The notes: generated from the sequence alone by a model not told the origin. 64,000 nucleotides of DNA from an uncultured Arcobacteraceae bacterium (GCA_964022095.1 CAXHZO010000013.1:1-64000); one strand, 5' to 3'; counted from the stretch's first letter, positions 30,081 to 40,958 are shown. Program-made: numbers and translations.

Positions 30081-31883
30081 TTGTTAATAATGGATAATCT
30101 ATTGAAATCTAAATATTTACTATCAATAATTTGTTTTGTTTTTTTAATATTACTAACGATGATTGTACAAAAATATATTACTCAAAAAGAGAATGAAATT
30201 TCAAAAGAAAAATACTCAAATATTTCATTTCTAATTCAAGAAAAAATAGATTTATTAATTAAAAAAGAAAAAAACTCAATACTCTCATTATCTTTATCTA
30301 TTAGTAACGGTAATCAAAAAATTAAAGATGTAATATTAAAAAATGGAAGTTTAGATTTAAAAAATATTGTAAAAAAGTTAGATACTCATACTAATTTAAA
30401 ACACTTATGGTTTCAAATAATTGATAAAAATGGTAACTCTGTTTACAGAACTTGGTCTTCTAAAAGAAATGATAATCTTCTTAATGTAAGAAAAGATTTA
30501 AAAGAATTAATTAAAAAGCCAAAAATAAAATCTTCAATTAGTGTTGGAAGATATGATATTACATTTAAAGCAACTATTCCTTTATATCAAAATGGTGAAT
30601 TTATTGGTTTTTTTGAAACAATATCTCATTTTGATAATGTTGTTAGATTTATAGAATCAAGTGATGATGTGCATTCTTTAATAATAGTAGATAAAGAGCA
30701 CTCAAAGCAGTTGAGAAATAATTCATTTTCCAAAACTTTTGTACAAAATCATTACATACCAAGTTACCTATCAAATAAAGATATATTAAGTTTAGTTAGA
30801 AAAGAAAATATTAGTGATTTTATAAGTATAGACAAATATATTTTAAAGAATGAATATTTAGTAATAAACTATAAAATAAAAGATAAGAATACAAAACTTG
30901 GGAATTTCTTAGTCTTTAAAAAACTTGATTCAATTGATATGACTGATTTAGAAGATTTTAAAAGGCACGCATTTTTCTATATTTTTACTTTTATTTTATT
31001 AATACTATTAATGATATTTACGATTTTTTATTACTTCTATGCAAGAAAACTTAAAAGTGTTCATATAAAACTGAGTAGAAATAAAAGAAAATTACAAGAA
31101 TTAAATGAGAATTTACAAATTACAATAGAGCATGAAGTTAAGAAAAACGAACAAAAAAATAAGCTTCTTTTTCAACAAAATAAGATGGCTGCAATGGGTG
31201 AAATGATTGAAAATATTGCTCATCAATGGAGACAGCCACTTTCACTAATCACAACAGAAGCTTCTGCTTTAAAAGTTAAAAAAGAGTATGGGCTTTTAGA
31301 GAATAATGATATTGAAAATTCATTAGAATCTATTATTGAAACATCAAATTATTTATCTCATACAATTGATGATTTTAGAAACTATTTTTCTCCTAATAAA
31401 GAAAAAAACTTTTTTAATAGTAATAAGTTAATCCAAAAGTGTTTAAATTTGATTTCTAGAGAGTTTAATAATAGAAATATAAAAATTATTCTAGATATAG
31501 AAAATATAGAAATAAATAGTTATGAAAATGAACTTGTTCAAGTGATTATAAATATTTTAAATAATGCAAAAGATGAATTAATAAAAATTGAAGATAGAGA
31601 AAAAAGATTTATATTTATAAATTTATTTATTCAAGAAGATAGTATTTGTATAAAAATAAAAGATAGTGCAGGTGGAATAGATGAGGAAATTATTGATAGA
31701 ATATTTGAACCATATTTTACCACAAAACATAAAAGCAAAGGTACAGGAATAGGCTTGTATATGGTTGATCAAATTTTAGAAAAGCATATTAAAGGTTACG
31801 TTAAAGTAAAAAATGAGAGATACAATTATGAAAATTGTGATTATACAGGAGCTGTTTTTTCTCTAATAATTCCTAAAAATTAG
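30081..31883 (+). CDS. Orphan sensor histidine kinase with Cache-like periplasmic domain
   Basis: Two TM helices, AHQWRQPL, DSAGGI, FEPYFTTK, GTGIGL; start may be ATG 30090. Confidence 0.88.
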   Translation: MLIMDNLLKSKYLLSIICFVFLILLTMIVQKYITQKENEISKEKYSNISFLIQEKIDLLIKKEKNSILSLSLSISNGNQKIKDVILKNGSLDLKNIVKKLDTHTNLKHLWFQIIDKNGNSVYRTWSSKRNDNLLNVRKDLKELIKKPKIKSSISVGRYDITFKATIPLYQNGEFIGFFETISHFDNVVRFIESSDDVHSLIIVDKEHSKQLRNNSFSKTFVQNHYIPSYLSNKDILSLVRKENISDFISIDKYILKNEYLVINYKIKDKNTKLGNFLVFKKLDSIDMTDLEDFKRHAFFYIFTFILLILLMIFTIFYYFYARKLKSVHIKLSRNKRKLQELNENLQITIEHEVKKNEQKNKLLFQQNKMAAMGEMIENIAHQWRQPLSLITTEASALKVKKEYGLLENNDIENSLESIIETSNYLSHTIDDFRNYFSPNKEKNFFNSNKLIQKCLNLISREFNNRNIKIILDIENIEINSYENELVQVIINILNNAKDELIKIEDREKRFIFINLFIQEDSICIKIKDSAGGIDEEIIDRIFEPYFTTKHKSKGTGIGLYMVDQILEKHIKGYVKVKNERYNYENCDYTGAVFSLIIPKN

Positions 31884-31889
31884 GAACTA

Positions 31890-32750
31890 TTAGTTTTTTT
31901 TCTTTGTAAAATATATAAATACTGTAAGTGATATCAAAATAACTGCAATACCTGCTATTAAATAAAAGGCATGGATCATGTGATCATAATTGTCAATGGC
32001 TATCTTAAATACGACTATAAGTGCTTCTATTGATAAGGCAATAATAATAGTAATCAAAAACTTTGTAAGCATCTTTGTTTCTACGTTTGAATTCTTTGAA
32101 TATGATTTAAAGAAAACTTCTTGTTCTAGGATTGTTTTTGCCAAATCAAATATTGCAATACCTAGGGTTAGAGCAATAATAGGTTTAAAAATCATTTCTA
32201 AACTTAAATCTATGTTTGCAAAAAGATAAGTTAAAAAGTCATAAAGAGAGAATATAATTGTAAAAAATGATAAAGCCATAAGTGTAAAACCAGCAACTAC
32301 ATAAAAACCTTTTGTAAGGCCATGAAATGATTTGTTTAATTCAAGTAAACTAAGTTTTTCTAATAAGATTTCGATTCTAAAATCTAGAAAATATATCTTA
32401 TCACCTTCTTTAACAGATACTGTTACACAACTACTTCTTGTTGCACTACTAATATATGGCTTTGAAAATGCAATATTATTTTCAGTAAAATGTAGTTTAG
32501 TAATAAGATGAGATCTGTTTTTACCATTTCCAATAGAATCATTTTTATATCTTCCAATATTATCAGAAACTTGTTGTTTTGTATTTTTATCAATTACATA
32601 TACTAATTCTAAAGAAGGAAATAGATTATAAAGGTGCTTGAAATCATTATTTTCATATAGTGATAGATCACCAAGGTTTCGAATACTTTCTTGTAAAAAG
32701 TACTCTATATCTTCTTGGTTCTGATTGTAGGTTTCTAAAAACTCTTTCAT
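31890..32750 (-). CDS. PDC/Cache-like N-terminal domain fused to 4-TM PsiE-like membrane domain
   Basis: SKPYISSAT...CVTVS Cache-like motif, then four hydrophobic helices (AIFDLAKTI, ALSIEALIVVFK). Confidence 0.6.
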   Translation of the reverse strand: MKEFLETYNQNQEDIEYFLQESIRNLGDLSLYENNDFKHLYNLFPSLELVYVIDKNTKQQVSDNIGRYKNDSIGNGKNRSHLITKLHFTENNIAFSKPYISSATRSSCVTVSVKEGDKIYFLDFRIEILLEKLSLLELNKSFHGLTKGFYVVAGFTLMALSFFTIIFSLYDFLTYLFANIDLSLEMIFKPIIALTLGIAIFDLAKTILEQEVFFKSYSKNSNVETKMLTKFLITIIIALSIEALIVVFKIAIDNYDHMIHAFYLIAGIAVILISLTVFIYFTKKKN

Positions 32751-32819: not shown

Positions 32820-34523
32820 TTAATTAGACATTTTGAATCTATAAGTGAAAACGTTTTGATTTTTAATGTAATCAACTTTGTATAAAATATTGTATTTATC
32901 ACATATTGAACTTATCATTGATAAACCTAATCCTAAACTTTTTTTGCCATTATCATTTTCTCTGAAGTTTCTTTGAAATATTTTATTGGTATCTTTAATT
33001 TTATTTCCATGTGAGTAAAAACTTAAAACTATATTTGAATTTTCTTCATAAAGTTTAATAGTTATTTGTGATAAATTTTGACTGTGTTTGATTGCATTTG
33101 AAATATTATTATCTATTAGTCTTTCAAGTTCTATAATATTAATATCAATCCAAAGGTTTTCCTCAATATCAGTTTTTATAGTTTTAGCTCTTGTTTTCAA
33201 AATATTTTCAAAAAAATCTATTCTTTCATTTGTAAACTTACTAATATTTAGTTTTTGTTTCTCATATGATATTTTTTTATTATCAATAATATAGCTTAAG
33301 TCATCATATGAACTTTTTAACATATTAATTGCAGAGTTAATTTGTTTTATATATTTATTTAACTCATAAGGTATATTTTTTTCAATAAATACGACATTAT
33401 TCATAATAATAGATAATGGAGTTTTCATTTGATCTGTAATAGCAATTATAAAATCTTTATTTTCTTTAAGTAGGTTTTGGTTTTTTGTTGTTGTATCTTC
33501 AAGCATTATTAAAGCTTCATAATATTTTTTTGTAAAATAGAATATGATCAATAAGAAAATAGTATGAAATATCAAGAAAACATAGAAATAAAAATCTATT
33601 TTTTTATCTAACTCTTTTTTATATGCCATATCAATATTTAATTTTAAAACAAAATCTCCCATTAGCTCTAGATATTCATTTGATTTTTTTATTAAAGGGG
33701 TATAAATTATTAAAGAATTGTTCTCTTTTTTTCTCAATTCTTTTTGTAGTCTATTTGAAAGTATTATAAAATCATTAGTTGTTTCATCTTTAGGGTACAT
33801 TTTTTTAGATGAAATATACTCTTCTTTTGTTTTTGAAAATTTTTTTTCTAAAATATTATCATAGTATTCATCTCCATTTAGTTTTCTTTCAATTCTATAT
33901 AAGTTACTTTTTTTATTTGTTACAAGATGTACTTTTTTAATAGTATCTCTAAGAATTTTGTTTATTTGTTTATTTATAAAGCCCATTTCAAAATATAATT
34001 CATCATTTATTTTTGAATAGGAATAACTTTTAATTTCAGAGTTGATTATGTCAATAGATACACTTTGTGATTGATAAATATTTCCATCATGTGTCTTATC
34101 TAACTCAAGTCTAGCATCAACTATTAGACCAAGTTTAAATCCTATATCAGGTTCATAGGTTGATTCAGTTATTGTGTAATCTTTATTTAATAAAAAAAGA
34201 TGTACATCTTTATTCTTTAAATCATAGTTAGAATAAATTTCATTTCTTAGTTTTTTAATATCAAGCTTTGGGTTTTTTCTTAGTTTTTTTGTATAGTATT
34301 TATGAATCTCCTTGAAGATTTTTCTATCAGCTTCAATTGCATCTCTAATTGTCTTAAATGTATTTATGATAATTTCTTTATTTCTAGAGATAGATTTTTC
34401 TATATAAGCATTTACTTTTTTATCCTGAGACTCTTTATATTCATAATAAACAGCATAGGTAAAATATATTGAAATAATAGTAATAAAGATATTTAAAAAT
34501 ATAAATTTGTATTTATTTCTCAT
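32820..34523 (-). CDS. Sensor histidine kinase paralog B lacking the phospho-His (H to D)
   Basis: H-box reads AITDQMKTPL; N-box NNISNAIKH, F-box KIFQRNFRE and G2 SLGLGL retained. Confidence 0.85.
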   Translation of the reverse strand: MRNKYKFIFLNIFITIISIYFTYAVYYEYKESQDKKVNAYIEKSISRNKEIIINTFKTIRDAIEADRKIFKEIHKYYTKKLRKNPKLDIKKLRNEIYSNYDLKNKDVHLFLLNKDYTITESTYEPDIGFKLGLIVDARLELDKTHDGNIYQSQSVSIDIINSEIKSYSYSKINDELYFEMGFINKQINKILRDTIKKVHLVTNKKSNLYRIERKLNGDEYYDNILEKKFSKTKEEYISSKKMYPKDETTNDFIILSNRLQKELRKKENNSLIIYTPLIKKSNEYLELMGDFVLKLNIDMAYKKELDKKIDFYFYVFLIFHTIFLLIIFYFTKKYYEALIMLEDTTTKNQNLLKENKDFIIAITDQMKTPLSIIMNNVVFIEKNIPYELNKYIKQINSAINMLKSSYDDLSYIIDNKKISYEKQKLNISKFTNERIDFFENILKTRAKTIKTDIEENLWIDINIIELERLIDNNISNAIKHSQNLSQITIKLYEENSNIVLSFYSHGNKIKDTNKIFQRNFRENDNGKKSLGLGLSMISSICDKYNILYKVDYIKNQNVFTYRFKMSN

Positions 34524-34524
34524 T

Positions 34525-35184
34525 TTATTTTTCTATTATATATCCTTGTTTGATCTTTGTTTTTATTATATTATAAGGTAATTTTTTTCTAATATCTGCT
34601 AGAAGCTGTCTTAATGGAAAAGAATCTTTATCCTCTCCTTCCCAGACGTAGTCATAAATTATTTCAACAGGTACAATCTTATTTACATTTTGTAAAAGTA
34701 CTTCAATTAATCTTCTTTCTTTGTTTCTTAATTCTATTTCCTTCTCTTTGAAAAAAAAGCTTTTAGTATTAAAATCATAATAGAAATCTGAATTGAATTG
34801 AATATTAGAGATATTATGATTTAAAAGTTTATTCACTCTTACTTCTAATTCTTTTATATGAAATGGTTTTTTAATATATTCACTACAACCATATTCAAAA
34901 GCTTTTATAAAGTTTTCTATTTCTAAAGATGCTGTAATAATTATAATAGGTGTAGTCGAGTCTTTTTCTCTAATATATTTTAGTATATCAATACCATTTA
35001 ACGAAGGTAAATTAATATCAATTACATAAAGATTAATATCTCTATTTGTGATTTTATCAATTTCATCAATTGCTTCAATCCCATCATGAATACTTGTAGT
35101 GTTGTAAGCTTTCATTTTAAAATATTCTGTAATAACAAAATTTAATTGAATATCGTCTTCTATAACTAGTACATTAAAATCCAT
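34525..35184 (-). CDS. OmpR-family response regulator
   Basis: IEDD, IDINLP, ITAS, KKPF, winged-helix C-terminus QGYII. Confidence 0.9.
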   Translation of the reverse strand: MDFNVLVIEDDIQLNFVITEYFKMKAYNTTSIHDGIEAIDEIDKITNRDINLYVIDINLPSLNGIDILKYIREKDSTTPIIIITASLEIENFIKAFEYGCSEYIKKPFHIKELEVRVNKLLNHNISNIQFNSDFYYDFNTKSFFFKEKEIELRNKERRLIEVLLQNVNKIVPVEIIYDYVWEGEDKDSFPLRQLLADIRKKLPYNIIKTKIKQGYIIEK

Positions 35185-35234
35185 ACTAATAATCCTTTAT
35201 ATAAAAATTGTATCTAAAAGAGGTAATATTCATG

Positions 35235-36938
35235 TCATTCCCAAGTGTATTTAAATAAGAAACTATCATCTTTTTTTTCACATTTATATATAATTTTATT
35301 TTTTTCACATATTTTTTTGATTACATAAATTCCTAAACTAATACTAGATGTATCTTTTATAAGTATTTTTTCACTTTTTTCAAATAAATTATTAATGCTT
35401 ATATTTTTTGAATATGCTTTAAAAACTAAATTATAAGTTTCATTTTCCTTATAGAAACTAATAATTATATTTGTTTTTATATCTCCATATTTTAAGGTAT
35501 TAGAAATATTATTATCTATTAGTCTTTCTAATTCTATATCATTAAAAACTATTTCATAATTCTCTTTTATATTTAGTAAGATATTTTTTTTATTTGCTTG
35601 GGCAATCTCATCAAAGAATATAACTCTTTCTTTGATAAAATTAGATACATCTATTGTTCTTTTTGAATACTTTAAATTTTTATATGAAATATAGTAAGAA
35701 AGATTTTCATATGAGTTTGATAAGGAATTAATTGCTGCATTTACTTGGCTTGTATATTTAGAAATATCTGTTTTAAATAATGTTTCCATAAAAGAAATAT
35801 TCGTAATGACAATTGACAATGGTGTTCTAATTTGATGAACCATGTTTGAAATAAAGTTTTTATTATAATTAACTAATTCTTTGTGTTTATTATTCTCTTT
35901 TTGAAGTTTTTCTTGAATTGATTGATATTTTTTTGTAAAGTAAAAAATAATAAAAAGTAAAATAAAGTGAATAAATATAAATAGAATAAGTTTAAATATA
36001 ATTGTTTGATAAAACTCTTTTTCTTGTGAAATATCTAAATCTACTTGAAGTATTATATCTCCAGGAATTCCCATGATAGGATTATTCTCTTTTAATAAAG
36101 GAATAAAAAATCTTAAAGTTTTATCATCTTTTACAGATTGTTGTTCCCATATTCTTGATGTTTTTATAATTGGATTATTTGTGATTTCATCTTGTCCATA
36201 TTTTTTTATATTTAAGTTGTAATCTTCATTTGTTTTGTAAGGTTTTTTATGGGCAAGCAAACTTTCATAAAAAAGATTATTATTACTATCTTTCATCACA
36301 CAAAATAAATCAATATGTGTGTTTGCAACTTTTCTCATTTCATCAAAATCTTTTCTATGATCTAAAGCTTCTTTATAAATTACTCCAAGTCCTAAGTAAA
36401 GCTCTTCATCTAATTTTGAATAAGAGTAATTTTTAAGTTCATAGTCTAAGAAGTCTACAGATACATCATTTGATTGTTTATATTGATCAATATATGATAA
36501 AGAGTCTAAACTCTCTTTTGATTTTTTATTAAAACTTAGATTTCTATTTAAGTTTTTTGCTTCTGTTGAGTCTATAACTCTATAATAATACTTATCTACT
36601 AAGAAAACTTCTATATCTACTTTTTTATTTTCTAATTGAAACTCTTTTTTTATATTATTTCTTAACTCTTGCAAATTAGCTTTAGGATTTTCTTTTAAGT
36701 GATTGTGTAAAGATAGATGTATTTCTTGAGTTAACTCTTTTTTATTTTCTAGTAATTGATTTATACCAACTAAGCTTTTTTGCATATGTGCTTGATTTAA
36801 GTTTAAGATTCTTGTTAGTTGTTTTTCTATTTCATATTTTTGGCTTAAAACATATGAGTCATAAACCATATATATAAAAAATAATGTAATAGAACTAATA
36901 GCAATATGAAGAATAGAGATTTTAAATTTTAAACTCAA
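35235..36938 (-). CDS. Sensor histidine kinase paralog A with intact His but degenerate ATP-binding boxes
   Basis: H-box MVHQIRTPL; G1 region KAYSKNI and G2 SSISLGI; TTG start. Confidence 0.85.
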   Translation of the reverse strand: MSLKFKISILHIAISSITLFFIYMVYDSYVLSQKYEIEKQLTRILNLNQAHMQKSLVGINQLLENKKELTQEIHLSLHNHLKENPKANLQELRNNIKKEFQLENKKVDIEVFLVDKYYYRVIDSTEAKNLNRNLSFNKKSKESLDSLSYIDQYKQSNDVSVDFLDYELKNYSYSKLDEELYLGLGVIYKEALDHRKDFDEMRKVANTHIDLFCVMKDSNNNLFYESLLAHKKPYKTNEDYNLNIKKYGQDEITNNPIIKTSRIWEQQSVKDDKTLRFFIPLLKENNPIMGIPGDIILQVDLDISQEKEFYQTIIFKLILFIFIHFILLFIIFYFTKKYQSIQEKLQKENNKHKELVNYNKNFISNMVHQIRTPLSIVITNISFMETLFKTDISKYTSQVNAAINSLSNSYENLSYYISYKNLKYSKRTIDVSNFIKERVIFFDEIAQANKKNILLNIKENYEIVFNDIELERLIDNNISNTLKYGDIKTNIIISFYKENETYNLVFKAYSKNISINNLFEKSEKILIKDTSSISLGIYVIKKICEKNKIIYKCEKKDDSFLFKYTWE

Positions 36939-36996: not shown

Positions 36997-37848
36997 TTAA
37001 AAACTAAATGCTTTCTTCAAAGAATCACCAACAGCTTTTATCTCTTCGATTTTATCCATAGGATTTGAAGAACTACCATTGTTTTGAGTTGTATTTTCCA
37101 TAGCTTCTTTTGGAGATGGAACTGAACCTATTGAAGTTGCTTGACCAGAACTTGATTTAAAAGTTATTGTTTTCCCATCAATTTTCTTTAAAGGAGCATT
37201 ATAACTATATTCCATAGGAATTAAAACTTTATATAAAGCTTCACCTTTTTGATTTGTTAATGCACATAAAGCTGTGTCTCCAACTTTACCTTCTTTAAAG
37301 AATCTTGGCTCTCTAATATATCCTGCACAAACTGATTCCATTTCCCATTTGTTTTTCTTTAACATTGAAGTAAAATCATTACCTCTTTTACTATTTGAGT
37401 CATTTGAACATTTTGAAATTCCATTTTCATTTGGACATCTCATTTTTATCATTCTCTCTGCAACTTTGTTTTTATATGCAATTTCTCCTGTTGGAACAGT
37501 TTGACCTGTTCTTAAATTCACACAAGAAAATTCTGGATTACTAGTCCCAAACTTTTTTTCCCAGTTTTCATCTAAAAACATTGTTAAACACTGATGTTGA
37601 GTAAGTTTAACTTCACAAGAGTTTTTACCCTTTGGAGTTAATTTTTTTGTATCAAAATAACCTGTACTTTTAGTGATTTGATTTAATCCCTTTTTCCACT
37701 CGTAATCACCTTTTGAGCCTATATACATTTTTTTATAATCTTTAGCATCCATTGCACAAGGAACAGATGCTGGGTCAAATGCATTTGCATAAGCCGTAGA
37801 ACTAAATAATAGACCAAATGTTAGTAGCGTTTTTAAATACTTTTTCAT
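36997..37848 (-). CDS. Secreted Cys-rich hypothetical protein
   Basis: Sec signal MKKYLKTLLTFGLLFSSTAYA; 8 Cys; AAGGA RBS. Confidence 0.75.
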   Translation of the reverse strand: MKKYLKTLLTFGLLFSSTAYANAFDPASVPCAMDAKDYKKMYIGSKGDYEWKKGLNQITKSTGYFDTKKLTPKGKNSCEVKLTQHQCLTMFLDENWEKKFGTSNPEFSCVNLRTGQTVPTGEIAYKNKVAERMIKMRCPNENGISKCSNDSNSKRGNDFTSMLKKNKWEMESVCAGYIREPRFFKEGKVGDTALCALTNQKGEALYKVLIPMEYSYNAPLKKIDGKTITFKSSSGQATSIGSVPSPKEAMENTTQNNGSSSNPMDKIEEIKAVGDSLKKAFSF

Positions 37849-37901: not shown

Positions 37902-40900
37902 TTAATAAACTATGTTAAGTGTTTGATCTTGAGTATCTGTAGCACCAGAGCTATCTGTAATTGTAAGTCTTATCGTTCTTGTACCACCTGGTAATCCTAC
38001 ACAAGAGTATGTCTCGCTAACTGTTGTTCCACCATCAATAAAATTATTACTATTACCTGCTGTTACATCAGTCCATGCATATGATGCAATATTTCCAGTA
38101 GATGAACTTCCAGTAAAGGTAATAAACTCAGAACCTACTCTTTGACTTGGAGAACAAAATGGTGTACCACTTTGTCCCTGAGCCGTAATAACTGCGTTTA
38201 ATGGAGTACTTGAAACAGGTCCAACTAAAAATGAATCTTGATTTGCTTGACTCATACCTGAGTTTGTAAATATATCACTTACAGTTAAACTTGCATTTTT
38301 TCTAGGATATAAAGCTGATAAATCTTGATTAAATGCACTTGCATCTTCAAACATATTATTCATATTTGTCACATTTTGAATTTGCCAAGTACTAATATCT
38401 TGATTAAATGCGGCAGATTTTAAGAACATACCTCTCATTGATGTAACATTTGATACATCCCAAGAACTGATATCTTGATTAAATGTATGTGAAGCAGGAC
38501 TACTTGCAAACATGAACTCCATATTTGTTACACTGCTTGTATCCCATCCACTTATATCTTGGTTAAACAATCTAGCTCCATTGAACATACCATACATTGA
38601 AGTTACACTACTTGTATCCCAAGAACCTATATTTTGATTAAAATTACTTGCACCACTGAACATATTATACATAGAAGTTACTGCACTCGTGTTCCAAGAA
38701 CTGATGTCTTTATTAAATGCAGATGCTCTGTAAAACATCTCTCTCATATCAGTTACACTACTTGTATCCCAAGAACCAATGTTTTGATTAAAGGCACTGT
38801 TTTGGAAAAACATAGCATACATAGTAGTTACAGAACTTGTATCCCATGAAGATATATCTTGATTAAAGCCAGTGTTTCTAAACATAACACGCATATCTTT
38901 AACATTACTTGTATTCCATGTAGAAATATCCGCATTAAACGCTCCTGCACTATTAAACATATAACTCATATTAGTCACATTACTTACATCCCATGAAGAA
39001 ATATCTGCATTAAAACTACTTGCACCATTAAACATATTAGACATCGAAGTAACATTTGATAAATCAGGAACTCCTGCACTTGAAGCAATAGTTGTTAAAT
39101 TACTTGCATTATTAAACATATTTGACATTTCTGTCCACTGATTATTACCCCAATTTACAATTTGTGTAATTTTTTTTGGATCTCCACTATTAAAAGCTAA
39201 ACCACCATATGTTCCACTTACTCTTACATCATATACTCCATCATTTGTATATGTACAAGTATAATTAGCAACACCTGTAGCTTCATTTGTTCCATCATTA
39301 TCACAATCTACATTTAAACTAACATTTGATGTTGTAGCTGTAACTCCAAAGTCATTTGTTCCATTGTTACCATTTGCTTCTGTATCAATTTTTAAGATGA
39401 AGTCATTTGATGTTGTGTTCCCACCAGTTGAAGCAGCACTTATAGTAATAGTTACAGTTTGAGAAGTTGATATAGGAGTTCCTGTTCCTCTATCTTCATA
39501 CTGTACAATTCTTAAATCATAAGTTCCAGCTGGTAATGCTGCTGGTGTATTTGTTCTTTGGTCTGCTGTTGTAAAATCAATAGTAGTTTGTGTACTTATA
39601 GGAATATTTCCTGAACTTTGATTATATATAGTTCCAAGCGAACCAGTTGGAGATAAAAACCACTCATAAGATAAAGTATCTCCATCACTATCAGTTGAAC
39701 CTGATAAATCAATAATATATGATGAAGCAGCGTTTTCAACTGCACTTGCAGATGTACCATTTGCTAAGTTCCAAACTGCAGCTTGATTTGATGAAGCAGC
39801 AGCATTAACTGTAACAATTACATCATCAGTAGAAGTAGCACCGTCATCATCAGTTACAGTTAAAGTGATATTATGAGTTCCCACAGAGAAATCAGATTTG
39901 CTAAATGATGAGTTTGTAGAAAGTACAGTAGAACCCTCAGCCCAAGAATAAGAAGAGATTGTACCATCACTATCAGATGAAGCAGAAGCATCTAAAGTTA
40001 CACTAGTACCTTGAGTTACAGTTTGATCCGCACCAGCATTAGCAACAGGAGCTAAATTAGCTGCAGCTTCAGTAGAGAAAGTAATAACCTTGTCAGTAGT
40101 ACCACCTAAATCAATGTCAGTTCCTGCATAGTTTTTAATTGTATTTTTGATAGTTAAAGTATAGTTTTCATTATTATCTAAATCGGCATTTGGAGTAATA
40201 GTTACTACATCTCCATCTCTAGTAATTATAATATCAACATTTGCACCTGTATTATCATTTGTTAGAATAAAATAATCATTTGTTAAATATCTTCTTGGTA
40301 TTTGGTCATTAAATGTAAGTTCAAAATCTACATCGATATCAACATTAGTATCCCCATTGTTAATTGTAGAAGAAGATAAACTTAATATAGTTGAAGTTGT
40401 TATTTCCCCTTGCGCTTCTAAAATATTTTCAATATGGTTTTGTGCTTGAGTTGCATCTACTATATCTTGTGAATTAAAACCTGCATTTACTAAAATAGTA
40501 TCAACAACAGTTCCATTATCTAATAAATTTGTTTCAGTATCATTTGGATCTTCAAATAAATCAAAATTAGTTTGATTTATTTCAATTGCATCAGTTGATG
40601 GGTCAGAATCTAGTGATTGTAAAAACCTACCTAATTTAATCACATCTGTATTTGTAGTATCTGTTCTAGGAACACCTATTATATCTTGTAAAAATATTTT
40701 CCCATCAACTGGAACAGCATTAACTGTTCCTAGTTTTACATCTCCTACAAAAAACTCAACACTTCCATCTGTATATGGAAATTTACCATTTGCATCAGTA
40801 TAAGAATCAGCAGAACCATTAGAGTATACTACTTTAACTCCTGATACAAAATCATCGATTAATGTTGCAGTTGAAGACGAGCCACTAGAACTACCTCCAC

Positions 40901-40958
40901 AACCAATAAGCATCCCAGCTACAACAATTGAAAAACTCATTTGTTTAAATTTGTTCAT
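37902..40958 (-). CDS. BspA-type/DUF285 repeat surface lipoprotein with Ig-like and PKD domains
   Basis: Lipobox LIGC followed by a Ser/Gly linker; [13 protein letters not shown]; ~10 [20 protein letters not shown] repeats. Confidence 0.88.
38310..39130 (-). repeat. ~75-nt (25-aa) DUF285 repeats
   Basis: Recurrent AGTTACACTACTTGTATCCCAAGAACC at ~38601 and ~38751. Confidence 0.85.

Follow-up and report, generated by a model that had tools for sequence, protein, structure and literature searches.

Two paralogous kinases with opposite losses

We analysed a stretch of 64,000 nucleotides from an uncultured Arcobacteraceae bacterium (GCA_964022095.1, CAXHZO010000013.1:1-64000; hereafter the window), in which three genes on the minus strand form a triad of a sensor histidine kinase (kinase A), an OmpR-family response regulator and a second, paralogous sensor kinase (kinase B). 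Kinase A has a complete H-box with the presumed phospho-accepting histidine and eroded ATP-binding motifs, whereas kinase B has lost the histidine and retains the ATP-binding motifs. Because these opposite losses are old and conserved, A and B probably work only as a pair, and we propose that one kinase has been split over the two paralogs, with the ATP domain of B phosphorylating the histidine of A in trans. We assign this reading a probability of about 0.55. Its evolutionary half, comprising complementary loss, age, co-inheritance and selection, is well supported by the sequence comparisons below, and its biochemical half is plausible.

Open reading frames (ORFs) were called on the whole window. 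They place kinase A (567 aa, TTG start) at 35235..36938, kinase B (567 aa) at 32820..34523 and, between the two, the regulator (219 aa) at 34525..35184. Kinase A consists of an N-terminal transmembrane (TM) helix, a periplasmic sensor (approximately residues 28-305), a second TM helix (TM2), a dimerization and histidine phosphotransfer (DHp) domain with the motif MVHQIRTPL and a domain with the catalytic and ATP-binding (CA) fold, and the architecture of kinase B is the same. The two proteins align from end to end with 34% identity (192/569, E 1e-91), and the alignment covers the periplasmic and TM2 motifs quoted in a first-pass annotation of this DNA, which had described two 567-aa paralogs around a single intact regulator. 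That description holds for the regulator as well, which matches Response_reg (1.7e-23) and Trans_reg_C (3e-10) in Pfam, as a member of the OmpR family should, and has the full acidic pocket (E9/D10/D11), Asp56 and the Thr and Lys of the phosphorylation site. According to an alignment with regulators of single systems, the phospho-site residues are kept in all triads. Only one base separates the stop codon of the regulator from the start codon of B (TAAaATG), and a scan of the minus strand found no terminator-like site inside the triad. Among 23 sequencing runs, none is listed as RNA with this sequence. The scan for promoter-like sites was uninformative (50 sites against 73.7 expected by chance).

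Compared with Pfam, A reaches the cut-off for HisKA (27.6 bits against 26.9) and gives no match to HATPase_c, while B exceeds the cut-off for HATPase_c (33.9 bits against 26.4) and stays below the threshold for HisKA (15.7 bits). The presumed phospho-acceptor of A, His368, is encoded by the CAT codon at 35835..35837 (minus strand; context atg gtt CAT caa att aga aca) and is invariant in an alignment (A2). The same position in B is occupied by Asp364, encoded by the GAT codon at 33432..33434 (minus strand; context att aca GAT caa atg aaa act). The CA domain of A (approximately residues 430-566; 35238..35651, minus strand) still has the Asn of the N box, and its G1 (KAYSKNI), F (LFEKSEKI) and G2 (SISLGI, preceded by a further Ser) boxes are eroded. 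The CA domain of B (approximately residues 426-567; 32823..33248, minus strand) contains the N box DNNISNAIKH, the G1 box FYSHGNKI, the F box IFQRNFRE and the G2 box SLGLGL. The first-pass reading of A as a kinase with phospho-His and degenerate G boxes, and of B as one with Asp in place of His and retained N, F and G2 boxes, is therefore borne out by codons, motifs and domain scores.

Measured against a full HisKA-class kinase, A falls short in the boxes of the ATP domain and B in the histidine of the H-box, and each has the feature that the other lacks. Not a single histidine is found in the whole DHp domain of the window's B, nor in 6/22 of the B proteins of its subclade, and no other histidine position is conserved, which indicates that B cannot itself carry the phosphoryl group. 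At the level of motifs, phospho-acceptor and ATP domain lie on separate polypeptides, and both proteins retain both domains as folds.

Conservation of the losses across the family

Relatives were collected by database searches with B and with A, and come from Arcobacteraceae and other Campylobacterota; the closest named A protein is that of Malaciobacter pacificus, with 88% identity. All counts rest on 164 distinct full-length proteins, each assigned to a clade by its best match to proteins with known gene context. A canonical histidine in orthologs of B was the finding that, according to the first-pass annotation, would speak against a split kinase. It occurs in none of the 39 B-clade proteins, compared with 60/60 in the A clade and 65/65 among the single-copy relatives. 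The Asn of the N box, the Phe of the F box and both Gly of G2 are each present in 39/39 B proteins and in 65/65 single-copy relatives. At two of the ATP-site positions the A clade departs from both groups: the F-box aromatic residue (Tyr or Phe), found in 39/39 B proteins and 65/65 single-copy relatives, is missing from all 60 A proteins, and the first Gly of G2, again 39/39 and 65/65, survives in only 12/60. In the A subclade to which the window belongs (n = 23) the G1 Gly has gone altogether (0/23), the F-box Phe remains in 7/23 and the Mg-binding Asn in 14/23.

The DHp domain shows the opposite picture. Of 33 columns that are conserved in single kinases, 23-26 remain in A and 16 in B, and the B proteins of the window's subclade have lost the Arg and Thr of the H-box besides the His. 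Their canonical site is occupied by Asn, Glu, Lys, Asp or Thr, and this variability implies that the residue has no fixed role.

The G1 box of B (SHGNKI) had also been singled out as non-canonical. The motif is present, but it is not a defect specific to B: Ser or Thr takes the place of the Asp of most kinases in 65/65 single-copy members of the family. Moreover, Ser-His-Gly-Asn-Lys-Ile of B aligns with Ser-Pro-Gly-Thr-Lys-Ile of Escherichia coli HprS (PDB code 9epn, E 1.6e-12). The system YedVW, identical to HprSR, is described in the available portion of its report as a working sensor of hypochlorous acid (10.1101/2021.09.09.459708); our literature check found no passage on autophosphorylation of HprS in vitro. 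Since a Ser-type G1 is family-wide and shared with the working HprS/YedV, it does not mark B as defective.

Gene order and evolutionary history

Loci were taken from related genomes, metagenome contigs and genome contigs, and ORFs were called in each. An A-like gene, a regulator gene and a B-like gene follow one another on one strand in 13 of the 15 distinct loci with a B-clade gene. The remaining two are cut by contig ends: one contig begins inside the regulator gene (G117), and the other truncates the A gene within TM2 (G056). The latter locus (L037, identical to L123 and G056; 1-865) could represent a real disruption or an assembly break. The first ~100 bases of its contig resemble what we take to be the C-terminal tail of an insertion-sequence transposase.

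The single-copy relatives (~600 aa) lie downstream of their regulator in 42 of 48 loci, counted without de-duplication. They carry an additional linker of ~35-40 residues after TM2, which starts with FTKPI and is HAMP-like (e.g. L128 4974-6794 and L177 1058-2869). This linker is missing from A and B, so that TM2 continues directly into the DHp helix. A maximum-likelihood tree of 64 full-length kinases (LG+G4, quick search, midpoint root, with branch support from the SH-like approximate likelihood ratio test only) recovers the A side (99) and the B side (100) as monophyletic groups that are sisters of each other (100), and attaches the pair beside the single kinases of Sulfurovum type (94). Each side divides into the same two subclades. 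Sister clades with matching subclades point to one duplication followed by co-divergence; on this phylogeny A and B are the products of one duplication of a single-copy Campylobacterota sensor kinase of ~600 aa, with a HAMP-like linker and a position downstream of its regulator.

The two subclades correspond to two grades of the triad. In type I, that of the window, the G1 and F boxes of A and much of its G2 box have been lost, and the histidine site of B is taken by Asn, Glu, Lys, Asp or Thr. In type II, the sister subclade (loci L038, L039, L046, L049 and L122; proteins P0023-P0038), A retains the N-box Asn in 37/37 proteins and has lost the Asn-Tyr of the F box and the first Gly of G2 (0/37), while the canonical site of B holds Ala, Thr or another residue. 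By these counts the ATP site of A is eroded further in type I. As no B protein has the canonical histidine and no A protein the F-box aromatic residue, both losses date to the stems just after the duplication. The degeneration went on stepwise from there, because type II A still scores as HATPase_c and type II B has a displaced histidine. The notion of complementary degeneration after duplication, put forward from the window alone, is thus upheld by census, tree and purifying selection together, with the addition that its course was stepwise and that an older sister form is extant.

The triad is rare. Of 184 species genomes from the family, 6 contain a B-clade gene, and an even sample of the phylum yielded it in one of 401 genomes, that of the window. 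In a library clustered at 50% the whole B clade is represented by one protein (P0018), and the census is unchanged. Two complete type I triads stand in tandem on one metagenome contig (L044 and L048, ~6.6 kb apart), with genes for DUF285-type surface proteins between them. Some further family members deserve mention. Two genes with 35-36% identity to B (G120:C10:4859-6562 and G125:C90:9410-11110; L012, L013, L041 and L042) contain one in-frame stop each (TGA and TAA, respectively) and may be broken single kinases. P0140, a third family kinase with both HisKA and HATPase_c, seems to be encoded on the same short contig as one protein of A type and one of B type (P0132 and P0004), judged only by equal contig sizes (7283).

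Selection on the two kinases

The ratio of nonsynonymous to synonymous substitution rates (dN/dS) was determined for one genome pair, the window and its congener G156. It is 0.113 for the whole of A (DHp 0.095, CA 0.098), 0.096 for the whole of B (DHp 0.083, CA 0.111) and 0.050 for the regulator; all domains fall within 0.04-0.14, none above 0.14. These values show that neither kinase gene is decaying and that even the crippled domains are constrained. The search for syntenic kinase-regulator-kinase triads with a conserved pattern under purifying selection, which had been suggested along with the split-kinase idea, therefore has a positive outcome: 13/15 loci, 39/39 B proteins and low dN/dS.

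A comparison of ortholog pairs, with A and B taken from the same pairs of loci, reveals a reciprocal pattern of constraint. The DHp domain is better conserved in A in 25/25 pairs. The CA domain is better conserved in B in 14/15 type I pairs, but in only 4/10 type II pairs. The sensor is better conserved in B in 24/25 pairs.

Predicted structures and solved relatives

AlphaFold2 models were built from the clade alignments, with a mean predicted local distance difference test score (pLDDT) of 81.9 for B and 78.5 for A. Both models feature a long N-terminal helix and an alpha/beta CA domain, the fold of which is retained in A, and in both a continuous helix links TM2 with the DHp hairpin. The periplasmic part consists in both of two tandem alpha/beta modules; from the secondary-structure pattern of the models, the sensor is predicted to be a pair of PDC/Cache-like modules.

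A Foldseek search with the full-length models returned kinase cores only, with the cytoplasmic halves of A and B matched to the cores of CpxA, HK853, HprS, CusS, YycG and DivL (PDB code 4q20) and no match for the sensor fold. At the sequence level B aligns through G2 to HprS (9epn), VicK-like and YycG kinases, whereas the match of A to solved kinases in the PDB ends at the N box. Prediction of a complex between residues 335-567 of A and 331-567 of B, with separate alignments, gave scores of 0.31, 0.31 and 0.34, where the mark is 0.32, and 0.00 for the three controls. We counted this result neither way.

Neighbouring genes

Directly upstream of A lies a gene for a 283-aa protein without a Pfam family (36997..37848, minus strand), and beyond it one for a 1018-aa surface protein with DUF285 repeats, Big_5 and PKD (37902..40958, minus strand). 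A relative of the DUF285 surface protein adjoins the triad in 5/5 type I loci with enough flanking sequence (the window, L036 2880-6390, L044 75-2546, L045 2-2531 and L048 6797-9301), and a protein of 283-357 aa, again without a Pfam family, is encoded directly upstream of A in three type I loci (the window, L036 and L045; cluster c3). The DUF285 surface protein is a candidate target of the system, the 283-aa protein may be part of the unit, and either could be a target or a partner.

On the other side, the next gene after B, in the same orientation, encodes a 286-aa multi-pass membrane protein without a Pfam family (31890-32750, minus strand), which G156 has as well. Beyond it, a third and complete sensor kinase (dCache_3, HisKA and HATPase_c; 30081-31883, plus strand) is oriented convergently to the triad.

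Proposed mechanism and alternatives

How could two incomplete kinases serve one regulator? A and B would assemble through their DHp helices, and probably through their sensor domains too, into a heteromer. The CA domain of B would bind ATP and phosphorylate His368 of A in trans, and phosphorylated A would serve as the donor for Asp56 of the OmpR-type regulator. Any phosphatase activity would be supplied by A, in which the HQIRT motif is retained, and the output may extend to the adjacent genes for DUF285 surface proteins. We give even odds to the stricter form of this proposal, an obligately heteromeric HisKA kinase in which one paralog provides phospho-His and regulator docking and the other ATP catalysis, so that signalling would need both proteins and two different periplasmic inputs could be combined. 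AND-gate logic or an asymmetric sensing site might follow from such an arrangement.

Several points weigh against this scheme. It requires autophosphorylation in trans, and whether a kinase works in cis or in trans is not readable from monomer models; the loop of the DHp domain sets which of the two occurs. Binding of A to B, use of ATP and phosphotransfer are all deduced from sequence, and co-divergence and fixed synteny bear on binding only indirectly. The single Gly in the G1 box of the family, present in 64/65 single-copy relatives, occurs in only 7/39 B proteins, the window's B among them, and is mostly exchanged for Ser or Ala in the other 32. The eroded CA domain of A is under constraint (dN/dS 0.098) and keeps its fold, so that it must have a role that the model does not explain. 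The dN/dS values stem from a single genome pair, and the ortholog pairs of the constraint test share history and are not independent. Finally, type II triads may work differently: there, A is still listed with HATPase_c in the database's precomputed Pfam column and has the G1 Gly in 37/37 proteins, and B has a histidine one residue downstream of the canonical site in 15/17 (MTAHMRTPL). The membrane-exit anchor and the proline of TPL are 40 residues apart in 18/18 A and B proteins for which both anchors could be located, and this constant spacing implies that the histidine is truly displaced and not shifted by an insertion or deletion.

Part of this evidence would fit a B without catalytic activity, a pseudokinase or co-sensor similar to DivL or RetS, acting by contact on A or on the regulator, with A serving mainly in phosphatase or phosphotransfer reactions and the regulator phosphorylated by another kinase or by acetyl phosphate. 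The canonical histidine is absent throughout the B clade, the H-box Arg and Thr are lost as well and the G1 Gly is replaced in 32/39; His-less kinase-like regulators or heteromers are documented, to the extent of the text available for RetS-GacS (PMC12189002) and CCNA_03265 (PMC11481889); and the genome encodes other kinases with related CA domains. Yet the N-box Asn, the F-box Phe and both G2 Gly in every B protein would be unexpected if ATP were no longer handled. A, in turn, keeps its H-box complete in 60/60 proteins despite a decaying ATP site of its own, which calls for a phosphoryl donor, and the fixed operon of A, regulator and B, with its tight coupling of regulator and B, suggests one unit. 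The partner of a pseudokinase of the DivL or RetS type is, besides, a kinase complete in itself, whereas the ATP motifs of A are eroded. We therefore consider such a role of B unlikely, though it deserves to be taken seriously. It is improbable, in our view, that A, with an unusual ATP lid, still works as a kinase by itself and that B is its accessory sensor. The window's A does have the N-box Asn, a CA domain under constraint and a CA fold in the model, and the HATPase_c score of type II A goes along with N-box Asn and G1 Gly in 37/37; but in the window's subclade the Mg-binding Asn has been lost from 9/23 proteins, the G1 Gly from 23/23 and the F-box Phe from 16/23, the window's A has no HATPase_c match in Pfam, and its sequence matches in the PDB stop at the N box.

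The displaced histidine of type II, in 15/17 B proteins and not due to an indel, raises the question whether another residue of B accepts the phosphoryl group, which would make A and B two separate kinases for one regulator, comparable to AbrC1 and AbrC2, each of which autophosphorylates according to the accessible part of the study (PMC4428217). However, the window's B and 6/22 of its subclade have no DHp histidine on which this could happen, no other histidine position is conserved, and the canonical site itself varies among Asn, Glu, Lys, Asp and Thr, which makes the idea very improbable. An artefact can practically be dismissed. A single change from CAT to GAT would suffice to produce the state of the window, but sequencing error, strain-specific mutation and pseudogene decay are excluded by the 39/39 B-clade proteins that share this state, by intact genes with dN/dS of ~0.1, and by contigs from three other studies (runs X4, X5/X6 and X7) that cover the Asp codon of B with no difference listed. 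We thus favour the split of one kinase over A and B as the reading that joins the losses on both sides.

Comparison with known systems

Histidine kinases are generally thought to insulate as homodimers after duplication. A two-gene kinase, HK1/HK2, exists in mycobacteria. To our knowledge, the natural kinase heteromers described so far are either regulatory, such as RetS-GacS, or of the CheA type with whole domains lost. A literature search that had most subscription journals outside its reach turned up no account of full-length HisKA sensors that occur in nature as a conserved pair with mirror-image defects, and the phrase "heterodimeric histidine kinase" was absent from the full texts searched. 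If the proposed split is true, it would represent a clean example of paralogs that subfunctionalised into mutual dependence, as well as a two-input sensor of natural design. It would be a split kinase made through point degeneration of paralogs, with an apparent intermediate form extant: the type II triad resembles a surviving intermediate of the same ratchet, and this would make a stepwise origin of interdependence, as in constructive neutral evolution, testable in a bacterial signalling enzyme. Two grades of triad and the single-copy relatives provide a ready comparative series for biochemistry.

DivL is a His-less kinase-like regulator that acts by contact with another kinase. RetS-GacS (PMC12189002) and CCNA_03265 (PMC11481889) likewise involve, in the portions of the two papers at hand, a paralog without a working histidine that acts through contact with another kinase, and for CCNA_03265, a His-less hybrid kinase of Caulobacter, the heterodimer is there only suggested. 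In pairs of the RetS-GacS type, as those portions present them, the partner is a complete kinase that functions by itself, and tuning it is all that the odd paralog does. Since the partner A itself lacks ATP motifs, the dependence between A and B would be mutual, unlike that of RetS and GacS.

Closer in their division of labour are CheA3/CheA4 of Rhodobacter sphaeroides, neither of which is active alone and in which the carrier of the histidine doubles as a phosphatase (PMC3591291, in the part available), and Hik36/Hik43 of Synechocystis, a split CheA-type kinase (PMC7656254, likewise in part). As in these two systems, phospho-acceptor and ATP domain are found on two polypeptides, here by their motifs. 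From the same partial texts, CheA3/CheA4 and Hik36/Hik43 belong to the CheA class, have lost entire domains (P1 or P3-P4) and come together in a chemoreceptor cluster. A and B, in contrast, are full-length transmembrane proteins of the HisKA class in which all folds are kept and motif residues differ, and they are a tandem duplication around a regulator.

The cluster AbrC1/AbrC2/AbrC3 of Streptomyces coelicolor also combines two paralogous kinases (57% identity) with one regulator (PMC4428217). According to the available text of that study, AbrC1 and AbrC2 both keep their histidine and each autophosphorylates alone; complementary loss is thus a feature of A and B and not of this pair. With respect to structure, the nearest solved relatives are kinases of the HprS (YedV)/CusS type (9epn, E 1.6e-12; 7zp0), which share the DHp-CA core and the Ser-x-Gly-x-Lys-Ile form of G1. 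HprS, however, combines all parts, histidine included, in a single kinase, and its sensor sequence is unrelated to the sensors of A and B.

Complementation between a His mutant and an ATP-site mutant is a classic experiment with EnvZ, NtrB and CheA. The corresponding mixing assays with MtrB H305Q and N419D, a His mutant and an ATP-site mutant, are described in the accessible part of the report as a standard laboratory test for cis or trans phosphorylation (PMC5956149). As in the trans-complementation of MtrB, one subunit of the A/B pair would contribute the histidine and the other the ATP domain, and only the mixed dimer should be active, provided that the reaction proceeds in trans. The MtrB variants are engineered point mutants of one gene, whereas A and B are natural, long-diverged paralogs with 34% identity, different sensors and a fixed operon. 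If our proposal is true, the triad would be the natural counterpart of this classic laboratory complementation experiment.

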